From positions 310,001-374,000 of the forward strand of contig NIVC01000108.1 in NCBI GenBank assembly GCA_002269645.1: a stretch of 64,000 nt of DNA. The letters are read 5' to 3'. The stretch is from Macrostomum lignano. Taxonomy: Eukaryota. Within the stretch, counting starts at the first letter, position 1. Every line of letters starts with the position of its first letter. Below, in pieces: positions 50,401 to 61,183 of this stretch. A program made the position numbers and the translations under genes. The notes below the pieces were generated by a model, which did no database searches, had not been told where the DNA came from, and worked only from the letters and a program-made list of their open reading frames with translations.

Positions 50401-50803
50401 GCAAAGACTTCCTAAGAGAGCCCATGGCATTCTCCGGGCCCAGAAGTCCGTGGGTGAGCCGGTTTGCGCAGAGAAAAGTGCATCTTAGACCGGCATGTCG
50501 CCTTCCTGAGCTGCGGCACGGCAGGAAGTGGCGGGGGGGGGCGGGGAGCTGAAGACAGGGAGTGGGTCAAGTAGAGAGGAAATTATCCTAAGGGAGTTAT
50601 CATTAAGGGAATTTTATTGGCAGGCTTTCATTGGGGTTTGTAGTCGGGACTCGTTTATCATACCGTAACTTTTCGGGGGTAACGATTAGAGGGTATTTTC
50701 GTCAGGGCTTATCACGGGTGTTCTACAATATTTCTCAGGAGGCATTTTATGAGACTTTATCCTGAGATGGACATTTATGTGGGTATTTCGTCAGGAGTAT
50801 TTA

Positions 50804-51769
50804 TGTTGTGACCTGCGTCACAGTGCTCCCTTGGTGCAAGTGCACTTTGATAGTTGTTGACTTTGGTAGTTGATTATTGTTACCCCCCCCCCCCGGCTCA
50901 AGCCAGTCTGGAGCTATGAGCCCTTTGGCTGAGCCTCTGCTCTCTTTCTCTCTCTCTCTCGCCTTGGCTGTTTAGCCCTTTGGCTAGCCGTGCTGATTGG
51001 CTGGGCCTCTGCTCTCTCTCCCTCTCCCTGGCCGTGCGCGCTTTCACCCTCCCCTCGCCGCAGCCAATCAGCTGTCAATCAGCTCCATTGTTTAAGCCCT
51101 TTCTCCCCCCCCTTGTTTGCGCCCCTGCCCCTTTTTACTCGTTATTTAAGGCGACGCTCAGACCCCGCCCCTTTTCTCACCGTGCCTGCGCCCATTTGCG
51201 CCCACCGCGATAAATAAACGAACGTGACCAGCGATCAGCCGTAAAGACGGTCTCTTACTGCGAAGACTCAATTTATTGCAATCGATCGGCCTTCCCGTGT
51301 ATGAGTGCTATAATCGACCCGGCCCGGTAAGCTGTCGAGACAATTGCCTGTGTTCCTCGGGGTCGCTCTCCTGATCTCTCTCTCTCTCACTCTCTCCTCA
51401 GTCTGACTCACCAGGCTGTCGAGTGGCCGACCGCCCGCAGCCCTCTCTCTCTTCCTTGACTCACCAGGCTGTCGAGTGGCCGCCCGCCCACAGCCCTCTC
51501 TCTTTTCCTTGATTCACCAGGCTGTCGAGTGGCCGACCGCCCGCAGCCCTCTCTCTCTTCCTTGACTCACCAGGCTGTCGAGTGGCCGCCTGCCCACAGC
51601 CGCCCCTCCCCTCTCTCTCGACTTCTCAACCTTGACCTCCCCCCGAAGTGTCCGTACGCCTCGGGGTCGCCGATCGAGCTCGTAAGCCCTGGGCAGTCTA
51701 GTACCCGAACCCCGACACCGCTACCCGTCGCCCAACCCGGCCGTGCCAGCGAGGAAGGGGGATACAACA
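50804..51769 (+). repeat. 5' LTR (966 bp)
   Basis: TG...CA ends; four copies of an internal 53-bp repeat (51405, 51458, 51511, 51564). Confidence 0.96.
51238..51280 (+). other. Spliced-leader-like sequence within the 5' LTR
   Basis: GCCGTAAAGACGGTCTCTTACTGCGAAGACTCAATTTATTGCA matches, from memory, the Macrostomum lignano SL exon lacking only its terminal TG; TAAATAAA at 51211-51218. Confidence 0.8.
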
Positions 51770-51770
51770 T

Positions 51771-51788
51771 TGGCGCCCGAACAGGGAC
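51771..51788 (+). promoter_or_regulatory. Primer-binding site complementary to tRNA-Lys(UUU)
   Basis: TGGCGCCCGAACAGGGAC, 1 nt after the LTR; this is the classic 18-nt tRNA-Lys3 PBS sequence. Confidence 0.92.
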
Positions 51789-51812
51789 TGCTCAGTTTGC
51801 TTGTGAGCTGTC

Positions 51813-52793
51813 ATGGCGAATGTGGACGAACTGATTCGGCTGCTAGCCGAGCGTCTGCGAGCGGATGGACCAGCCCAGCCACCGAGACTCCCGAAGCCCG
51901 TGAAGTACACGTCAAGCATGAATTTTCGACTCTGGCTGCGCTCTTTCAACGCTTATTGCGACTCCGCCGAGATTGACGAGGAGCATCGCCGCGAGCACTT
52001 GATGAGCATGCTGGATCTCGCTACGGCGTACGCTGCGGTCGATAATCTGAACCTGCCGGGACCCGACGATCCTGTGGATCCGCTGGACTACGAGGGATTC
52101 ACCGCCCGGTTGGAGGCTCGCTTCTCCCGGTACCGGACAGAGCAGGACAGCAAGGTCGAGCTAAAAACCCGAGATCAGAAGGATGGCGAGTCGTTGGAGG
52201 CCTACGCAGATGCTCTCCTTGAACTGGTGCGCTGTGCCTACCCGGCGGCAACTGCCGAGCTGCAGGACGACCTCGCGAAGGATCGCTTCATGCAAGGTGT
52301 GAGACTCTCCGACCTCCAGCGAGAGAAGCTCTACCTGCAGCAGCCCGAAGGTCTGGTGGCAGCACAACGCGCGGTGAGGCAGCTCGAGGCGGCGTCCAAG
52401 GCGGCGAAGGGACCGAGATCGGCTGGAGCAACTGGCAGCGGCCACCGAGGAGTCTTCGTGGTGAGCGGCGCGGCGGAATCTGTGCCTCGGGAGGATGGAG
52501 CCTACTCCCAAGAAAAGGACAAAGAGCTCGAGGAGTTGAAGAAACTGGTGAGGCAGCTTCAAGGCAAAGTGGTTCAGCTCGAGTCGCTGAGAGCGGAACC
52601 GCATAGCAGCGCCGCAGCTCGACCGACCGACTCCGACGAAGGCGACCATCAGAAGCCTCGACGAACGGGAGGAATTCGCTGCTTCTTCTGCAACAAGCCA
52701 GGGCACATCGCGACTAACTGCCCAACCCGTCAGCAACAGGGAAACGGCAAGGGGAACTTCCGCAGGGGCGAGGGAGTTCCGCCGAGACAGTAG
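51813..52793 (+). CDS. gag: Gag (326 aa)
   Basis: Retrotransposon capsid-like region (LKTRDQKDGESLEAYADALLELVRCAYP) and CCHC knuckle CFFCNKPGHIATNC. Confidence 0.93.
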   Translation: MANVDELIRLLAERLRADGPAQPPRLPKPVKYTSSMNFRLWLRSFNAYCDSAEIDEEHRREHLMSMLDLATAYAAVDNLNLPGPDDPVDPLDYEGFTARLEARFSRYRTEQDSKVELKTRDQKDGESLEAYADALLELVRCAYPAATAELQDDLAKDRFMQGVRLSDLQREKLYLQQPEGLVAAQRAVRQLEAASKAAKGPRSAGATGSGHRGVFVVSGAAESVPREDGAYSQEKDKELEELKKLVRQLQGKVVQLESLRAEPHSSAAARPTDSDEGDHQKPRRTGGIRCFFCNKPGHIATNCPTRQQQGNGKGNFRRGEGVPPRQ

Positions 52794-52842
52794 AGGCCCC
52801 AACCCGAGACGAAGATGCAGCCCCGGAGCGACGTGCAGCAGG

Positions 52843-55800
52843 ATGCCGGCGGACTGCTCAAGAGATAGAGATCAACCTGCAACAGCTTTTAATCCCGTGT
52901 CAATCTACGTGTCGGTAAAAATTGGCGAGATTGAGTTGCCGTGTCTGTTGGATTCGGGCTCGGTCATGTCGCTGGTGAACGAGAGGACCTGGCGGCAGTT
53001 GAGCAAGTCGGTTCGAGTTGAACTCAGCCCTTCGGAAACCCACCTGATCTCAGCGAACGGAACTCCCATGAATGTGTTAGGATGCGCGTCGCTTCCCCTA
53101 CAGTTCGGATCAGAAACTTTACAGACGCCAATTGCGGTGGTCCAAGGGGTCGGCTACGAACTGTTGCTAGGCACCGACTTCTTACGCCGCCACCGGTGCC
53201 AAATCGATTTCGCCGGAGGAGTTTTCCGCGTGAACGGTTCACGTGTGCCAATCCGAGAGACCAAGCACAAACCAGTCGTCTGCCGGTTGTACCTGAACGA
53301 AAACTTGATCATTCCGGCCAATCACGAACGGACCGTCTCAGCCAGGATTCGGAGAACAGCGACACAGAATTCCGGAGTGCTTGGCGTCGCCGAGCCAGAC
53401 GAAAAACTGAAGAGCGATGAGAGACCAATGCTAGCCAGGAGCGTCTGCCTCATCCAGCAGGGCAACACCCTACCAGTTCACTTCGCGAATGTCACGGACT
53501 CCGAGCTGCGGCTGCGGAAGGGAGCTGTCATCGGCTGGTTTCGACCATCAGATCCGGCTCAAGAGGTTCTGGTAGCCAGCATCGAAGAGCAAGCGTCGGT
53601 TTTACGACCCAGCTGCGATCCATGGGACCCAGAGGCGGCACTGAACCAGCACGGCTCCAAGCAGCTCACGGGGGCAGACAAAGCGAGCTTCCTAAGATTG
53701 GTGAATCGATACGCAGATGTTTTCGCAGAGAGTACAGCGCGCCTCGGGACGACGGACATCGTGCAGCATGAAATTGAGACCACCGGAACAGCCGTAAAAC
53801 AGCCTCCGCGACGGCTACCGCCACATTGGCGCGGCGAAGTCGACCGACAAATCGACGAGCTTTTGGCAACGAAGATGATTGAACCGACCCAATCGCCGTG
53901 GAGTTCGCCAGTGGTCTGTGTCCGTAAGAAGAATGGGGAACTGCGACTGTGTGTCGACTACAGGGAGTTGAATCAACGAACTGTCAAGGACGCCATAGCA
54001 ATCCCGCGTGTCGATGACGCACTTGAAGCGCTCGGAGGTGCGGCTGTATTTTCGACGCTCGACCTGTGCTCCGGCTATTGGCAAGTTAAGGTCAAAAGGG
54101 AGGATCAAGAAAAGACTGCTTTTGTCATTCCGCATCGGGGGCAATTCGCGTTCAAGGTGCTGCCCTTCGGATTGACCAATGCGCCGGCGACATTCACAAG
54201 GTTGATGAATATGGTACTACACGACCTTCTGTGGAAAATGGCGCTCGTCTACATCGACGATATCATCATTTGGTCCCGAACTGTCAGCGAGCATCTAACG
54301 AATCTCGAGGCGGTATTCCAGCGCCTGCGCGCAGCCAACTTGAGGCTAAAGCCATCTAAGTGCAGATTCCTGGCCGATGAGGTCAAATTCCTTGGCCACG
54401 TCGTGTCAAAGGACGGAATCGATGTCGACCCGGAGAAGATCAAGGAAGTCCGTGACTGGAGCATTCCAAGAAATGCAAAAGACCTTCAGTCGTTCCTGGG
54501 TCTGGCTGGTTACTACCGAAACTTCATACCAGAATTCTCGATAGTCGCTGCACCACTTTTTGATCTGACAAAGAAAGACAAGCCGTTCAGTTGGAGAGAG
54601 GAACACGATGAGGCCTTCAAAAAGCTGAAAGAAGAATTGACCGGTTGCCGCGTGATGGCCTACCCGAACTTCGACCCCACGGCTGGTGAGTTCATCTTGG
54701 ATACCGATGGAAGTACCCGACAGGGTCTCGGAGCAGTCTTGTCGCAGGTACAAGAAGACGGGTCAGAGCGGGTTATTGCGTACGGGAGTCGGCGTCTGCA
54801 AGGGGCCGAATTCAACTATTGCACGACACGAATCGAGCTCCTGGCGCTGGTGACATTCGCAGAGAGGTTCCGGTACTATCTACTTGGCCGGAGGTTCCGG
54901 GTGCGCACCGACCACGCAAGTCTGCAGTGGCTCCGAAGTATGAGGCAGCCGGAAGGCCAGTTGGCTCGGTGGATGGAGAGGTTGGCGCCATTCGACTTCG
55001 CAGTGGAGCATCGGCCAGGGGCGCGTCATCAGAATGCGGACGCGCTGTCACGCAAGCCGCCGCGACGACATCCCGAAATGGATAACTGCCCGTCGTGCCG
55101 GACTGATGACCTCCCCGGGGTCAGGGTAACGACGCTGCTCGGGTTGCTCAGCCGAGATGAGCTGGCAGCAGCACAAGCTGTGGACAACGACATCGCTCCA
55201 GTTTACCAGTCGATGCACGCCGGCCGAGCAAACGAAGAGCCACCTGGGGGTGCGTCACCAACGACCCGAGCCATCTGGGCACAAAAGCCTCGGCTGGAAA
55301 TTGTGGACAACACCCTCGTCATCAAGGATCTGGGACATCACCCACCGCGGGCTGTTCTCCCGAAGAAATTGATCCCCGACGCTCTGCAGACGCTGCACTC
55401 TGGACCAGGAGGTGGACACTTCGGCGTAGCAAAGACTCTGGAGAAAGTCAGGAACCGATTCTGGAGACCCGGCTTGAAGCGAGAGGTCGAGGAGTTTGTG
55501 CGAAGGTGTGACGACTGTAACCGGAGCAAGCCCGGGATGCGGCGGAAGGCCCCATTGGAGCCGATTCCCAGCAGCCATGTGTTTGAAAGAGTGATGGTGG
55601 ATTTGATTGGACCACTGCCAACCAGCGTCCGAGGCAACAAATACATACTGACGATGCAGGACGCGTTCAGTAAGTGGCCAGTGGCAGTACCGGTGCCAGA
55701 TCAGACGGCCAGCACCTGTGCAAGGGCAATGCTCGAGGAGTGGGTCTGTCACTACGGAGCCCCAGGAACAATCCACTCGGATCAGGGAGCCAATTTCGAG

Positions 55801-56715
55801 TCGCAATTGATCGGCCAGCTGTGCGAAAGTCTGAATATCCGAAAGACGCGTACGACCGCCTATCACCCCTCTGGAAACGGCCAAGTGGAAAGCTTCAATA
55901 AGACGCTGACTGCAGTGATCCGGGCGCACCTGGTGAAGGAGCCGGATCAGAGGCGGTGGGACGAATTCGTTGCCCCGGCGCTCATGGCGTATCGCTCCAG
56001 TGTGCACCGCGGCACCGGCTACTCACCCTTCTTCCTTCTGCATGGTCGCGAGATGTCTCTGCCAGTTGACTTGGGAGTGGCGCGCCCACTGGACATCGAA
56101 CCGTACTGCGAGGAAGTCCAGAACCTGCGGGAGACGCTCGTGGAAGCCCATCGGGTGGTGCGTGAGAGAATAACGTCATATCAACGAGTGCAGAAAGACT
56201 GGTACGACCGGAAGGTGAAGGGTCGAGAATTCGTGGCTGGCGACGAGGTGTTTGTCTACAACCCCGTGTTGAAGGCCGGTGCCAAAGCGAAGCTCCACTC
56301 ACCCTGGACCGGACCTGCCGTAGTTCTCGAGAAGCTGTCGGAGACGCGCTATAGGATTCGACAGGAAGGTCGACGGAAGCCGATCAAGGTGGTGCACTTT
56401 AACAACCTCCTGCCTCGGTACCGGAAGTACCCGGTCGACGGCACCGGTGGCCCTCGGCGTCCTGCACCAAGGAGGTACCACCCAGGTCCTGCTCAAGAGA
56501 CGGAATCCGTCAGGGAGGACTCGCAGGAATCGGACGATGAGGATGAGGAGCGATGGTGGCGACATTCCGGGCGGGTTCGAGAGGAGGGAGAACCAATGGA
56601 TGTGCAGCAGCCAGGAGTGCAGCCGCAGCCGGAAGCGCCAGTTGAAGTCATCGAAGGTCGACCCCAGAGGGATCGAAGGGTTCCGCAGCGTTATGGAACG
56701 CCCGTTTATTATTAA
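52843..56715 (+). CDS. pol: Pol polyprotein: protease, RT, RNase H, integrase
   Basis: LLDSGS protease; RLCVDYRELN, LPFGLTNAPATF and YIDD for RT; RNase H LDTDGS..EL..DHASL; integrase HHCC (H..GGH..CDDC), DLIGP/SDQG/VESFNK and a GPY/F-like SPWTGP. Confidence 0.96.
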   Translation: MPADCSRDRDQPATAFNPVSIYVSVKIGEIELPCLLDSGSVMSLVNERTWRQLSKSVRVELSPSETHLISANGTPMNVLGCASLPLQFGSETLQTPIAVVQGVGYELLLGTDFLRRHRCQIDFAGGVFRVNGSRVPIRETKHKPVVCRLYLNENLIIPANHERTVSARIRRTATQNSGVLGVAEPDEKLKSDERPMLARSVCLIQQGNTLPVHFANVTDSELRLRKGAVIGWFRPSDPAQEVLVASIEEQASVLRPSCDPWDPEAALNQHGSKQLTGADKASFLRLVNRYADVFAESTARLGTTDIVQHEIETTGTAVKQPPRRLPPHWRGEVDRQIDELLATKMIEPTQSPWSSPVVCVRKKNGELRLCVDYRELNQRTVKDAIAIPRVDDALEALGGAAVFSTLDLCSGYWQVKVKREDQEKTAFVIPHRGQFAFKVLPFGLTNAPATFTRLMNMVLHDLLWKMALVYIDDIIIWSRTVSEHLTNLEAVFQRLRAANLRLKPSKCRFLADEVKFLGHVVSKDGIDVDPEKIKEVRDWSIPRNAKDLQSFLGLAGYYRNFIPEFSIVAAPLFDLTKKDKPFSWREEHDEAFKKLKEELTGCRVMAYPNFDPTAGEFILDTDGSTRQGLGAVLSQVQEDGSERVIAYGSRRLQGAEFNYCTTRIELLALVTFAERFRYYLLGRRFRVRTDHASLQWLRSMRQPEGQLARWMERLAPFDFAVEHRPGARHQNADALSRKPPRRHPEMDNCPSCRTDDLPGVRVTTLLGLLSRDELAAAQAVDNDIAPVYQSMHAGRANEEPPGGASPTTRAIWAQKPRLEIVDNTLVIKDLGHHPPRAVLPKKLIPDALQTLHSGPGGGHFGVAKTLEKVRNRFWRPGLKREVEEFVRRCDDCNRSKPGMRRKAPLEPIPSSHVFERVMVDLIGPLPTSVRGNKYILTMQDAFSKWPVAVPVPDQTASTCARAMLEEWVCHYGAPGTIHSDQGANFESQLIGQLCESLNIRKTRTTAYHPSGNGQVESFNKTLTAVIRAHLVKEPDQRRWDEFVAPALMAYRSSVHRGTGYSPFFLLHGREMSLPVDLGVARPLDIEPYCEEVQNLRETLVEAHRVVRERITSYQRVQKDWYDRKVKGREFVAGDEVFVYNPVLKAGAKAKLHSPWTGPAVVLEKLSETRYRIRQEGRRKPIKVVHFNNLLPRYRKYPVDGTGGPRRPAPRRYHPGPAQETESVREDSQESDDEDEERWWRHSGRVREEGEPMDVQQPGVQPQPEAPVEVIEGRPQRDRRVPQRYGTPVYY

Positions 56716-56742
56716 GAGCGGACGTGAGTGCGTGCGCAATGT

Positions 56743-56975
56743 CGCGTCATCTCCTGCGTCATAAATAATTGGTTCGAAGCATCATCCGCGTCATCACCTG
56801 CGTCATCAACATTTGGTTCGAAGCATCATCCGCGTCATCACCTGCGTCATCAACATTTGGTTCGAAGCATCATCCGCGTCATCACCTGCGTCATCAACAT
56901 TTGGTTCGAAGCATCATCCGCGTCATCACCTGCGTCATCAACATTTGGTTCGAAGCATCGTCTGCGTCATCACCC
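56743..56975. repeat. 44-bp tandem repeat between pol and ORF3
   Basis: CGCGTCATCACCTGCGTCATCAACATTTGGTTCGAAGCATCATC, about 5 copies. Confidence 0.92.
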
Positions 56976-57179
56976 GCGTTATTGAAAACTGGGCTCGTGT
57001 TATTGCCTCTGCTTCACAAACAAAAATATATATTTCCCCTCTTAAGGCCCGTCAGGGAGGTCCCACCTGCCCAACCCTGCCATCAGGGATGAAGGATCGG
57101 CGCCCCAAAGAGGCTCGAAGGAACCATTGCCCTGCTCTCAAAAGTGAGTCGTGGTTGTTGCAGGCACTGCTTTCCGGGC

Positions 57180-58061
57180 ATGGACCTCTACGCCGAGTTT
57201 GGTGTCAGCCCCTTCGCGACGGAGGAGGAGCTGCGACGTGCGTACCGCCGTGAGAGCCTGCGACGGCACCCCGACAAGTGTGGACCCGGTGGAACGGAGA
57301 ATTTCCAGAGGCTGCAGCATGCGAGTGCGGTCCTGCTGTGTCCGTTTCGACGAGCGCTGTACGACCGGTTCGGGCAGGATGCCGTTAGCAACCCGCTCGA
57401 GTGCGCCCGGTATTTTGTCCCGCCGGATGGGATGTGCGTCCCGGAGGAGTTTGTCGTAACGATTGAAGACGAAACAGAAGAGTCAGACGAGGACAGGGAG
57501 TCGGAAGGAAGCGAGCGTGGTGGTTGCGGCGGCGAGGAGACTGCTCAGAGCTGCTGTGAAATCACGCAGTCAGAGGAAGAAGAGCTCTTGAATGAATTCG
57601 ACGGCGAAACTTCGATGTCAGAAGACGAACCGGAGCTCGTCATCGACCAACGGGAGTCGCCAGCGTGGCTGATGAGGAGCGAGCCGAGTACCGAGGTGGA
57701 ATACACCTGGAGCGGGGAGGCAACGCAGCGAAGAGCTCGAATCCGGTCGGAGCTTCGGCACGCTTTGTTGTCGGGGAGTCCAGCTGCGATGTTCCGGCTT
57801 TTGACTGAAATGGTGGGACTGTGCGGCAGCGAGCGGCTGGATCATCGACGCGAAATCGCCGAGCTTTTGGCTCAGACTGTCAAGTTCATTCTCCGTGACA
57901 TCAGCGCCAAGTGTCGGGGTCATGCTCGGCGTGTCTGGCGGCGGCCTGCCTTCAAGCGAAGCACTCGGTTCGTCATGAGTGTTGCGATCCCTCAGTTTGA
58001 ACTAATCGACGGAGGACGCGTGTTGGGGTTGTTGCGCCGGGCGGCGGAGGTGGCGGTCTAG
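57180..58061 (+). CDS. ORF3: J-domain (DnaJ/Hsp40-type) protein, 293 aa, encoded inside the retrotransposon
   Basis: DLYAEFGVSPFATEEELRRAYRRESLRRHPDK...ENFQRLQHASAVLLCPFRRALYDRFG is a complete J-domain with HPD at 57267-57275, followed by an acidic linker and a predicted helical C-terminal domain; intact ORF. Confidence 0.88.
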   Translation: MDLYAEFGVSPFATEEELRRAYRRESLRRHPDKCGPGGTENFQRLQHASAVLLCPFRRALYDRFGQDAVSNPLECARYFVPPDGMCVPEEFVVTIEDETEESDEDRESEGSERGGCGGEETAQSCCEITQSEEEELLNEFDGETSMSEDEPELVIDQRESPAWLMRSEPSTEVEYTWSGEATQRRARIRSELRHALLSGSPAAMFRLLTEMVGLCGSERLDHRREIAELLAQTVKFILRDISAKCRGHARRVWRRPAFKRSTRFVMSVAIPQFELIDGGRVLGLLRRAAEVAV

Positions 58062-58189
58062 GGGGTTCTGGGGCAGGATGCCAGGGCGGGCAAGAGACCT
58101 TCACTCCTTCATTTCATCCCATCTCTCCTCTGATCGTCGTTGTGATCCCTCTGTTTGGCACTGGGAGCGGCCCCGAAGGAAGGGCGGGG

Positions 58190-58400
58190 AACACTCTCGG
58201 CCATGCCCGGCGCTCTCGGTCGTTGCCCGGCATTCTCGGCCGCTGCCCGGCATTCTCGGCCGCTGTCCGGCACTCTCGGCCATGCCCGGCGTTCTCGGTC
58301 GCTGCCCGGCATTCTCGGCCGCTGCCCGGCATTCTCGGCCGTGCCCGGTGTTCTCGGCCTGTCCGACATCCTCGGCCCCTGTCCTGCGCTCTCGGCCGCT
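58190..58400. repeat. ~20-bp GC-rich repeat (GCTGCCCGGCATTCTCGGCC) in the element's 3' UTR
   Basis: Direct reading. Confidence 0.85.
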
Positions 58401-58490
58401 GCCTGACACTCTTGGTCTCTTTCATTCAGTTTCATTTCATTACATTTTTTTTCATTTTCATTCAGTCAAAGCGCGTCGTTTTCTTTTTTT

Positions 58491-58501
58491 AGGGGGGAGG
58501 G
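58491..58501 (+). promoter_or_regulatory. Polypurine tract
   Basis: AGGGGGGAGGG preceded by a T-run, directly abutting the 3' LTR. Confidence 0.9.
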
Positions 58502-59358
58502 TGTTGTGACCTGTGTCACAGTGCTCCCTTGGTGCAAGTGCACTTTGATAGTTGTTGACTTTGGTAGTTGATTATTGTTACCCCCCCCCCGGCTCAAGCC
58601 AGTCTGGAGCTATGAGCCCTTTGGCTGAGCCTCTGCTCTCTTTCTCTCTCTCGCCTTGGCTGTTTAGCCCTTTGGCTAGCCGTGCTGATTGGCTGGGCCT
58701 CTGCTCTCTCTCCCTCTCCCTGGCCGTGCGCGCTTTCACCCTCCCCTCGCCGCAGCCAATCAGCTGTCAATCAGCTCCATTGTTTAAGCCCTTTCTCCCC
58801 CCCCCTTGTTTGCGCCCCTGCCCCTTTTTACTCGTTATTTAAGGCGACGCTCAGACCCCGCCCCTTTTCTCACCGTGCCTGCGCCCATTTGCGCCCACCG
58901 CGATAAATAAACGAACGTGACCAGCGATCAGCCGTAAAGACGGTCTCTTACTGCGAAGACTCAATTTATTGCAATCGATCGGCCTTCCCGTGTATGAGTG
59001 CTATAATCGACCCGGCCCGGTAAGCTGTCGAGACAATTGCCTGTGTTCCTCGGGGTCGCTCTCCTGATCTCTCTCTCTCTCTCACTCTCTCCTCAGTCTG
59101 ACTCACCAGGCTGTCGAGTGGCCGACCGCCCGCAGCCCTCTCTCTCTTCCTTGACTCACCAGGCTGTCGAGTGGCCGCCTGCCCACAGCCGCCCCTCCCC
59201 TCTCTCTCGACTTCTCAACCTTGACCTCCCCCCGAAGTGTCCGTACGCCTCGGGGTCGCCGATCGAGCTCGTAAGCCCTGGGCAGTCTAGTACCCGAACC
59301 CCGACACCGCTACCCGTCGCCCAACCCGGCCGTGCCAGCGAGGAAGGGGGATACAACA
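58502..59358 (+). repeat. 3' LTR (857 bp)
   Basis: Near-identical to the 5' LTR but with two rather than four 53-bp internal repeats; SL-like copy at 58931-58973. Confidence 0.96.
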
Positions 59359-59662
59359 TTTACTCAAGATTATTTCTTCGGAGGTATTTCCTCGGGGTAT
59401 TTCCTCAGGGGTATTTCCTCGGGGTATTTCTTCAGGGGCATTTCCTCGGGAGTATTTCTTCGGTGGTATTTCCTCTTGAGTATTTCCTCAGAGGTATTTC
59501 TTCAGGGGTATTTCGTCAGGGGTATTTCGTCAGGGGTATATCCTAAGGGTTATTTCCTTAGGAGTATTTCCTAAAGGTAATCAGTCGGTGGTGGGGGTGA
59601 ACGGAAGGTCAGCTGCTCAGCCTTCGCCTCCAACCGTCTCGGAATTGCAGCGCACTCGCGAC

Positions 59663-60340
59663 ATGGTGGACCGCGAGCTGCTAAACGTTGTGTGGGTGAC
59701 GGCCTCTGTGGTGGCGGGCACGGGCACCACCCTGATCGCCCTGGTGCTCATCTGCAAGGTCACTCAGCGCTGCCGGCTACGCTGCCGTCGTCGAAAAATT
59801 AAAGGCAGCGGCGGTCGCGGCCTCCCAGACAATGCAGACACAGCCTGTTGCTGCTGCTGCTGCGGCAGCGGCGGCGGAGCTGACAGCTTCGGCCGATCGT
59901 CCACCGCTGTCTACGACGCCGCCCGGACTGGCAATAAGCCGGCGATGGACACCTTCGACGACTTTCTGCAGCGGTCCTTCAGCCCTGGCGGCCACGCGGA
60001 GGCCCTGGCCCAGTCCAGTCAACAGCAGCTGCCGCCGCCGCAGCAGCCGCAAGCGCAGCCGAGACCGCCGCCGCCGCCGCAGCCACAGCCGCTGCCGCAG
60101 CCGCAGATTGCGGCAGGCGCGTCGTCCAATGCGGCCGCTGCGGCGGCGGCGGCTGCAGCGGCGGCGGCAGCAGCCTCAGCAAATCGGCAGTCAGGAACCC
60201 CGACAGCGCCGAAACCGCCCCTCGTTGGTGCGGGCTCCATGCCGCATCAGCAGCCGCAATACCAGCAGCGGACTTCGCCAATGATTGGCTCGCCGCGTCA
60301 GACCCCGCCGCAGCTGCAGCTGCAATCGCAGAGTCTGCAT

Positions 60341-60378
<38 letters not shown>

Positions 60379-60412
60379 TCAACAGCAACAGCAGTACCTT
60401 CAACAACAACAA

Positions 60413-60457
<45 letters not shown>

Positions 60458-61183
60458 TACCTGCAGCAGTACCCGTCAAAGGATTCTCAGGCGCTCCTCA
60501 ACCAGATTGTCGGCGCCCAGCAGCCACAGCTGACGCATCCCGGCCTGGCGCCCAACCGCATTTCCCGACAGCCGACGCAGCCACCGCCGCAGCAGCAGCA
60601 GCAGCTGCTCGGCCATCACCGCTCCATGGCGATGCTGCACGGACCATCGCAGCCTCCGCAGCAGCAGCCGCAGCCCCCGACTTCGATGTCACCACTGCGT
60701 GGCCGCATGCCAGTCGGCCTGGCGAGGCACCAGTCGGACGCCGCCGTGGCTGCCTACGCGTACGCGGTGCGGGAGGCCGCAGCGGCCGCCGCCGCAGTCA
60801 GCGTCGACCTGCAGTCCATGCCGCCGTCGGCCTACGAGCAGCACCAGCACCTGCTGCAGCGGCACCACCGGCCCATGGCCTTCGAGATCTGCGAGAGCGA
60901 CTGCGACCGGTACAGCGACCTCAGTCTGGGCGGTGGCGGCTCCGGCGGCGGCAACCACCTGGACGGTGTCGGGAGCGCCGTCGAGAAGGCAGCGAAACCG
61001 CCCACATCAGTCGCCGTCGCCTTCAACTACGACACGTACGACACCGAGTGGCCGCTGAACAGCTACGTGCGACCTGGCGCAGTCGCCGGCTTCCACGAAG
61101 GCGTTCAGGCCCGCTGCCACCCCGCCAGGAGGGGCCACATCCTCTTCGGCCGGGGCACCGGCCGCTTCACCGGCAACTTGTGA
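59663..61183 (+). CDS. Single-pass membrane protein (or large exon) with a poly-Q/poly-A/Pro-rich cytoplasmic tail
   Basis: Long GC3-rich ORF; TM-like VVWVTASVVAGTGTTLIALVLIC followed by a basic stop-transfer segment (RCRLRCRRRK); phase-0 acceptor TTGCAG at 59645-59650 just upstream; family unknown. Confidence 0.65.

Follow-up and report, generated by a model that had tools for sequence, protein, structure and literature searches.

A predicted splice from the long terminal repeat to a J-domain ORF3 in Ty3/Gypsy elements of Macrostomum lignano

A 64,000-nucleotide stretch of the Macrostomum lignano genome (GenBank assembly GCA_002269645.1, contig NIVC01000108.1, positions 310,001 to 374,000 of the forward strand; hereafter the window, in whose numbering all coordinates are given) contains a complete Ty3/Gypsy retrotransposon, with two long terminal repeats (LTRs), a primer-binding site (PBS), gag, pol, a third open reading frame (ORF3), a polypurine tract (PPT) and a target duplication. 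Its assignment to Ty3/Gypsy follows from gag being followed by pol in the order protease, reverse transcriptase (RT), ribonuclease H, integrase (PR-RT-RNaseH-INT). ORF3 is predicted to encode a J-domain protein, and the question that the locus raises is how this frame, lying behind pol, is translated. An earlier examination of the DNA (the ‘sequence-only reading’) had proposed that an ATG in the 5′ LTR is spliced in frame to ORF3. Comparison with related elements leads us to consider it quite likely that ORF3 is translated from a minor cis-spliced RNA in which an LTR donor (exon end 51326) is joined to an acceptor just ahead of ORF3 (57164).

Conservation of donor, acceptor and phase

The coordinates given by the sequence-only reading proved to be right: the LTR ATG is at 51301, the donor reads CCG|GTAAGC with its G at 51327, the acceptor (...TTGCAG|G) is at 57163/57164 and the ORF3 ATG is at 57180. 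Its claim on frame follows from arithmetic (26 nt of exon 1 plus 16 nt gives 42 nt, placing the LTR ATG in phase with the J-domain frame), and the gap between an LTR copy of the spliced leader (SL) and the ATG is 20 nt, as it had stated. The PBS (51771–51788) does fall within the predicted intron, so that the spliced RNA would lack a primer site for reverse transcription. In unspliced RNA the LTR ATG opens a 9-codon upstream open reading frame (uORF) whose stop codon lies within the donor (TAA in the window, TGA in the sister family A′).

Relatives were sampled by searching the M. lignano genome with ORF3, which gave 153 matches; further searches added families, and 100 stretches of up to 10 kb were retrieved for comparison. 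Word-index searches missed most relatives. Five loci (L079–L082 and L087) were dropped, being without a gag or pol match and having the appearance of host DnaJ genes. An RT tree (28 rows, midpoint root, one outgroup cluster) separates six outgroup rows from the elements with ORF3 (100/99); the latter fall into seven lineages (A/A′, B, C/I, D/H, G, J/K and E/F), with RT identities to the window element of approximately 57–64%. Families H and I, which have no clean LTR, were omitted from the seven-lineage table and belong to lineages D and C, respectively. The nearest outgroup LTR (L152/L153) matches family Mlig-id38 of the Gmr1/Osvaldo cluster (PMC12801592), and the outgroup is without ORF3; it alone was tied to a named family, the RT tree having been built without reference RTs.

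The sequence-only reading had named other copies as the place to look for conservation of donor, acceptor and phase, and all three are kept in diverged families. All ten representatives of the seven lineages share a GTRAG donor 156–240 nt downstream of the TATA box; each also has an AG 0–16 nt ahead of ORF3. The probability of such a site in shuffled sequence is 0.07–0.19 per lineage for the donor and 0.36–0.49 for the acceptor; their respective products, 1e-6 and 3e-3, err on the optimistic side, since the sites are inherited and the donor window was fixed once the data had been inspected. Among four outgroup LTRs, which belong to elements without ORF3, none has GTAAG and one has GTGAG after its TATA box.

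The strongest evidence for the predicted splice is the retention of phase in A′ and in other families. At 68% of synonymous sites A′ differs from the window (pS 0.68, near saturation), yet it has 23 nt (7 codons plus 2 nt) from an LTR ATG to a GTGAGC donor, one codon shorter than in the window and in the same phase 2. This ATG...CG|GTGAGC arrangement is kept in four of five LTR loci (L048, L050, L142 and L143), the donor being lost in L141. All three A′ ORF3 copies (L047–L049) have Leu instead of Met at the start of the J domain; their codons after the acceptor are conserved, with changes among A′ copies mostly synonymous, and their nucleotide similarity to the window begins at the acceptor (57158). 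Genomic acceptor context is present in all 24 loci that hold the start of exon 2 (20 distinct places; six of 30 loci were without the probe), and among those 20 places we found no retro-copied spliced form. As separate observations on single copies, the 5′ LTR of L031 is without the region from TATA box to donor, and the ORF3 Met of L043 is missing.

Three predicted start-codon solutions appear to be built on this one splice layout. The LTR ATG is a feature of A and A′ only; in the other lineages the first exon either is non-coding or supplies the A of a split A|TG. In E and F the donor exon ends in A in each of three different contexts, TG follows the acceptor, and no Met is found at the J start, so that only splicing would make a start codon. 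The remaining families would use an ATG of their own, placed directly after the AG in B, C and D, 1 nt after it in G and 7 nt after it in J (the family D ORF3 is a separate 328-aa gene at NCBI, starting at the Met after the AG, which lends the prediction indirect support). In A′ the LTR ATG is the only in-frame start found. From these comparisons the predicted splice layout is general to the clade, and the LTR ATG and the SL copy are lineage-specific.

These start codons also bear on the possibility that SL trans-splicing at the same acceptor frees ORF3 from a long RNA, as it does a downstream gene of an operon. Approximately 30% of the genes of M. lignano, whose leader sequence has been published, are SL trans-spliced at a YTNCAG motif that the window acceptor fits (PMC8629364), and the spliced mRNA of the Caenorhabditis elegans element Cer1 occurs with and without SL1 (PMC3315495). 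The ATG of a trans-spliced SL would be in frame in B, C and D and out of frame in the other six of nine tabulated families (A, A′, E, F, G and J), and A′, E and F have no other Met. Trans-splicing also leaves the conserved LTR donor unexplained, and an SL-to-57164 joint was found in none of the four RNA data sets described below, among the joints listed. We regard this route to ORF3 as improbable.

For the window family itself we think that the LTR ATG is probably the one used. The splice could be real for the clade while the window family starts at Met 57180 (the LTR ATG being a relic) or uses the second GTAAGC at 51682, a sub-case of cis-splicing that does not exclude it and that we judge unlikely. 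In its favor, the start context is weak at 51301 (T at −3) and strong at 57180, most lineages use a Met beside the acceptor, and the two LTRs of locus L039 disagree by one base in exon 1, the 5′ version being 1 nt shorter. It does not account for the Cys-Phe-Pro-Gly that precedes the Met and is kept between A and A′ at a near-saturated synonymous distance, and the 51682 donor is without a counterpart in L048.

Table 1. Features of the window element and their coordinates
Feature	Position	Strand	Remarks
4-nt target duplication	50800–50803 / 59359–59362		flanks of element
5′ LTR, TG...CA	50804–51769	+	966 nt
TATA-like box	51143–51149	+	transcription start predicted ~30 nt downstream; similar box in all 7 lineages
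AATAAA poly(A) signal	51213–51218	+	upstream of SL copy, LTR ATG and donor
SL exon copy	51238–51280	+	43 nt, without last 2 nt of SL exon
Predicted exon 1, coding part	51301–51326	+	8 codons + 2 nt
Predicted splice donor GTAAGC	51327–51332	+	from sequence
Predicted 5.8-kb intron	51327–57163	+	spans rest of U5, PBS, gag and pol; predicted from sites and conservation
Second GTAAGC, in U5	51682–51687	+	without counterpart in sister LTR L048
PBS	51771–51788	+	presumably tRNA-Lys type; inside predicted intron
gag	51813–52793	+	zinc knuckle, Retrotrans_gag/PNMA-like
pol open frame	52591–56715	+	PR-RT-RNaseH-INT
Predicted splice acceptor	57154–57163	+	sister-family similarity begins at 57158 in 3/3 sister copies
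16 nt ahead of ORF3 Met	57164–57179	+	Cys-Phe-Pro-Gly kept in sister family via synonymous changes
ORF3, 293 aa	57180–58061	+	HPD J domain aa 2–62, acidic linker, five-helix C-terminal domain from 57708
PPT	58486–58501	+	
3′ LTR	58502–59358	+	own copy of SL segment, ATG and donor

Beyond the features in Table 1, an Rfam scan of 50700–59500 gave one match only, which we judged to be due to chance. Tandem repeats of 44 nt occupy 56720–56990 in the gap between pol and ORF3, and repeats of ~20 nt lie at 58200–58400 past ORF3; the sister family has comparable arrays on both sides of ORF3. With the ATG and donor repeated in the 3′ LTR (58994–59025), read-through could splice into host exons; a 567-codon open frame lies at 59480–61183.

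RNA contigs, opposing observations and the spliced-leader copy

The RNA data consist of assembled contigs from four runs of four studies (four of 24 listed; their status as RNA is presumed), mapped on 50804–58501. Depth over the SL copy is 27,000–93,000, which fits mRNA libraries. The joints listed for these runs to the SL (to 53185, 56604, 57921, 57990 and 58302) were rejected as 20–22-nt matches at non-AG places that come from other trans-spliced genes. Compared with the window, the contigs also have one-base indels at 52845 (all four runs) and 57055 (three of four).

Several observations weigh against the proposed splice. Chief among them, the 51326-to-57164 joint, for which the sequence-only reading had proposed a search in RNA as a refuting test, is in none of the four contig sets among the joints listed, with the element itself covered; in all four runs unbroken contigs span the acceptor, as one does the donor in run X4. 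Unspliced sequence is therefore present, and the result suggests that splicing does not yield the dominant form in these samples; since rare forms are lost from contigs, absence of the junction there is no proof that splicing does not occur. Within the window, a frame match of one donor–acceptor pair has a chance of 1 in 3, of the 18 AGs found between the stop of pol and ORF3 nine are in frame, a YAG falls within 16 nt of the start in 41% of shuffles, and the LTR has the second GTAAGC noted above. A lone pair of sites in one sequence is weak support for a splice, and the prediction rises above chance only because of its conservation across diverged families. Within family A, exon 1 and donor are exact in 14 of 16 loci and the acceptor in all 16, which says little since the copies are nearly identical; this family retains its own Met in a stronger context and may do without the LTR ATG. 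The U5 that contains exon 1 is broadly homologous (the exon 1 score of 30 was reached by three of 2000 shuffles and exceeded by five background windows), and an A at donor position −1 occurs also in B and G, which have no need of it. L065 has an upstream ATG that is open and out of frame, and two closed uORFs occur in G; every translated A′, E and F copy of ORF3 is decayed or truncated; and family K (L147–L149) keeps a GTAAGT donor without a recognizable J frame.

Some of these observations would fit a chance arrangement around a passively carried fragment of a host DnaJ gene, given how common a single donor–acceptor–frame match is. Such an origin is largely refuted by selection on ORF3: the ratio of nonsynonymous to synonymous change (dN/dS) is 0.05–0.24 in five of six pairs, the sixth being saturated. 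ORF3 is also found at the same position in seven lineages and has a clade-specific C-terminal domain. Comparison of the sequence with its relatives argues against a chance arrangement, which we consider highly improbable. The earlier description of ORF3 as an element gene is upheld by this purifying selection.

The LTR donor might instead be kept to bind the U1 small nuclear ribonucleoprotein (snRNP) against the 5′ poly(A) site, with ORF3 made from an internal promoter and its own ATG. The donor lies ~110 nt past AATAAA, and foamy viruses use U1 at an LTR donor in this way (PMC3694450); a TATA-like run is found near 57026, the donor of family K is kept without a recognized J frame, and the RNA contigs have no LTR–ORF3 junction. 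Such a role does not account for the AG conserved where ORF3 starts, for the indel that keeps the phase or for the families without a Met. An internal transcript would also contain an out-of-frame ATG, at 57089, which overlaps the start of ORF3, and suppression by U1 may in any case act alongside splicing. As a replacement for splicing we find it hard to credit.

With cis-splicing as the preferred reading, transcription would start in the 5′ LTR and read past the poly(A) signal. Most of the RNA would be left unspliced, as genome and as template for gag and pol, the LTR ATG there giving its short uORF only. In the window family the spliced fraction would encode ORF3 with a 14-residue N-terminal extension; the stronger Met at 57180 may also be reached by leaky scanning. 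A further effect of the donor may be suppression of the 5′ poly(A) site, on the foamy virus pattern (PMC3694450).

The SL segment of the LTR has a 43-nt identity with the exon of a true SL RNA gene (L113), minus its last two bases. True SL RNA genes, defined by an SL exon ending in ATG, a donor directly after it and an Sm site, are found at L113–L120; the LTR copy was rejected as such a gene, being without the last 2 nt of the exon and without the SL intron. It was found only in family A, and its absence from the sister and other families indicates that the splice does not need it; by this comparison it is incidental to the splice. The copy starts 19 nt past AATAAA, at the expected end of the genomic RNA, and shares its first base with the SL-derived genomic copies L098 and L111, which fits capture by a strand jump from a trans-spliced RNA during reverse transcription. 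L097–L099 and L111 have the full SL exon joined to sequence other than that of an SL gene and are likely processed retrocopies of trans-spliced mRNAs. In the sister LTRs L142, L143 and L050 the 7 nt up to and including the LTR ATG are identical to the final 7 nt of the spliced leader; as L048 and L141 have another sequence at this place, the match may be due to chance.

The ORF3 protein

By sequence and model, ORF3 is a class C-like J-domain protein. It matches the Pfam DnaJ domain above cut-off (E 1.2e-12), its predicted J fold has a structural match with a Z score of 10.5 (root-mean-square deviation 1.3 over 69 residues), and the HPD motif is present in ten of 11 aligned ORF3s; family J is without it. 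Pfam gives no env family for it, so that the likeness to env-bearing Gypsy elements drawn by the sequence-only reading does not extend to the protein. The model comprises the J domain, a disordered acidic linker and a helical bundle. The clade-specific C-terminal domain of five helices is modeled with confidence (predicted local distance difference test, pLDDT, 92). Comparison of its structure gave a best Z of 8.4, too low to be meaningful for a helical bundle; Foldseek gave no match at E<=0.001 in PDB or viral sets, and the Atlas was blank for the window. An Atlas lead to DnaJ-X (PF14308) at 0.77 gained no support, hhalign giving a probability of 0.1% (with a two-sequence profile) and eight members having no Pfam match.

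Several families have additions to this plan. The acidic linkers of B, C, E and F contain (V/I)xISDDE motifs, which we take to be like SUMO-interacting motifs (SIM-like); the window has a loose match only. The ORF3 of lineage D/H has an inserted chromodomain (E 9e-9). Family J, which is multi-copy (L121–L127 and L137), has a 558-aa ORF3 composed of a J domain without HPD, a helical domain and a TatD-like nuclease domain (E 5.5e-5, below the Pfam cut-off); L155, of lineage E/F, has a TatD-like remnant as well. For the chromodomain-bearing ORF3s of families D and H (L083 and L084–L090), NCBI lists the hypothetical host genes Mlig001265g8/g11.

A profile search returned nine proteins: two from M. 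lignano, six ORF3-like proteins from Logan/JGI with at most 76% identity to the loci examined here, and one weak, repetitive match that was dropped. The same C-terminal domain occurs in these six ORF3-like proteins of public assemblies and in one cluster member, and the ORF3 family thus likely extends beyond the M. lignano genome. A metagenome scan with one ORF3-like protein (P0127) found nothing; a second gave 80 loci that match within the first 157 query residues only, mostly the J domain.

J proteins recruit Hsp70 to clients. By analogy, ORF3 most likely uses its HPD motif to bring host Hsp70 to a client that the helical domain binds. On the strength of the chromodomain and SIM-like motifs we lean toward nuclear counter-silencing over capsid assembly: release of nuclear silencing complexes is the function that we favor, tentatively, and chaperoning of Gag/Pol assembly appears less likely. 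A joint account, in which the clade domesticated an Hsp70 co-chaperone as a counter-silencing factor, expressed from a spliced, non-copyable mRNA, aimed at SUMO-marked or methylated chromatin and stripping repressors via Hsp70 as a transposon counterpart of polyomavirus T antigen, with the LTR taking up SL sequence at the poly(A) site probably through a reverse-transcribed trans-spliced RNA, is speculative and as a whole rather unlikely.

Related systems and significance

Spliced accessory genes are known in LTR elements. In Drosophila gypsy, env is expressed from a spliced subgenomic mRNA whose start codon can be made by the splice (AT|G) and whose donor is in the gag region (PMC2585583). The elements described here resemble it in a post-pol ORF3 from a (here predicted) spliced RNA and in a splice-made start, A|TG in E and F; they differ in a donor that lies inside the LTR, upstream of the PBS, and in a J-domain cargo in place of a fusogen. 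Of the earlier parallel with env-type ORF3s, what stands is a predicted spliced accessory ORF3 with conserved donor, acceptor and phase; the env cargo and the gag-region donor do not carry over. The CERV protein of C. elegans Cer1, likewise a non-env accessory protein of a Gypsy element made from a spliced mRNA, with the splice sites left unused in genomic RNA (PMC10309623, PMC3315495), differs in sharing exons of the gag frame, in its five exons and in exporting genomic RNA, and the passages available mention no J domain. Bdelloid rotifer LTR elements have captured non-env ORF3s (GDSL, DEDDy), said to be expressed typically from spliced messages; DnaJ has no occurrence in that paper (PMC5408684), and family J here adds a TatD-like nuclease instead. 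The major splice donor of foamy viruses is inside both LTRs, as here, but lies upstream of the poly(A) signal and not ~110 nt downstream of it (PMC3694450).

Polyomavirus T antigens are made from spliced viral mRNA and join an N-terminal HPD J domain to a client-binding part. They are products of a DNA virus, and the likeness to ORF3 is one of layout.

In the literature searched, which took in few subscription papers, we found no report of a J-domain ORF3 in LTR retrotransposons. The accessible main text of a survey of LTR elements in M. lignano (PMC12801592) does not mention DnaJ, ORF3 or splicing; its expression table has 13 DnaJ matches, of which the two examined lie in one host-gene row. 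A term search of PMC13524379 gave neither DnaJ nor Macrostomum.

If confirmed, these elements would provide a young accessory gene, present in multiple families of a transgenesis-ready worm, with which to study how transposons use host chaperones or evade silencing. The cargo may help the element to use or disarm host proteins, and some annotated ‘host’ J proteins (Mlig001265g8/g11) are element genes.

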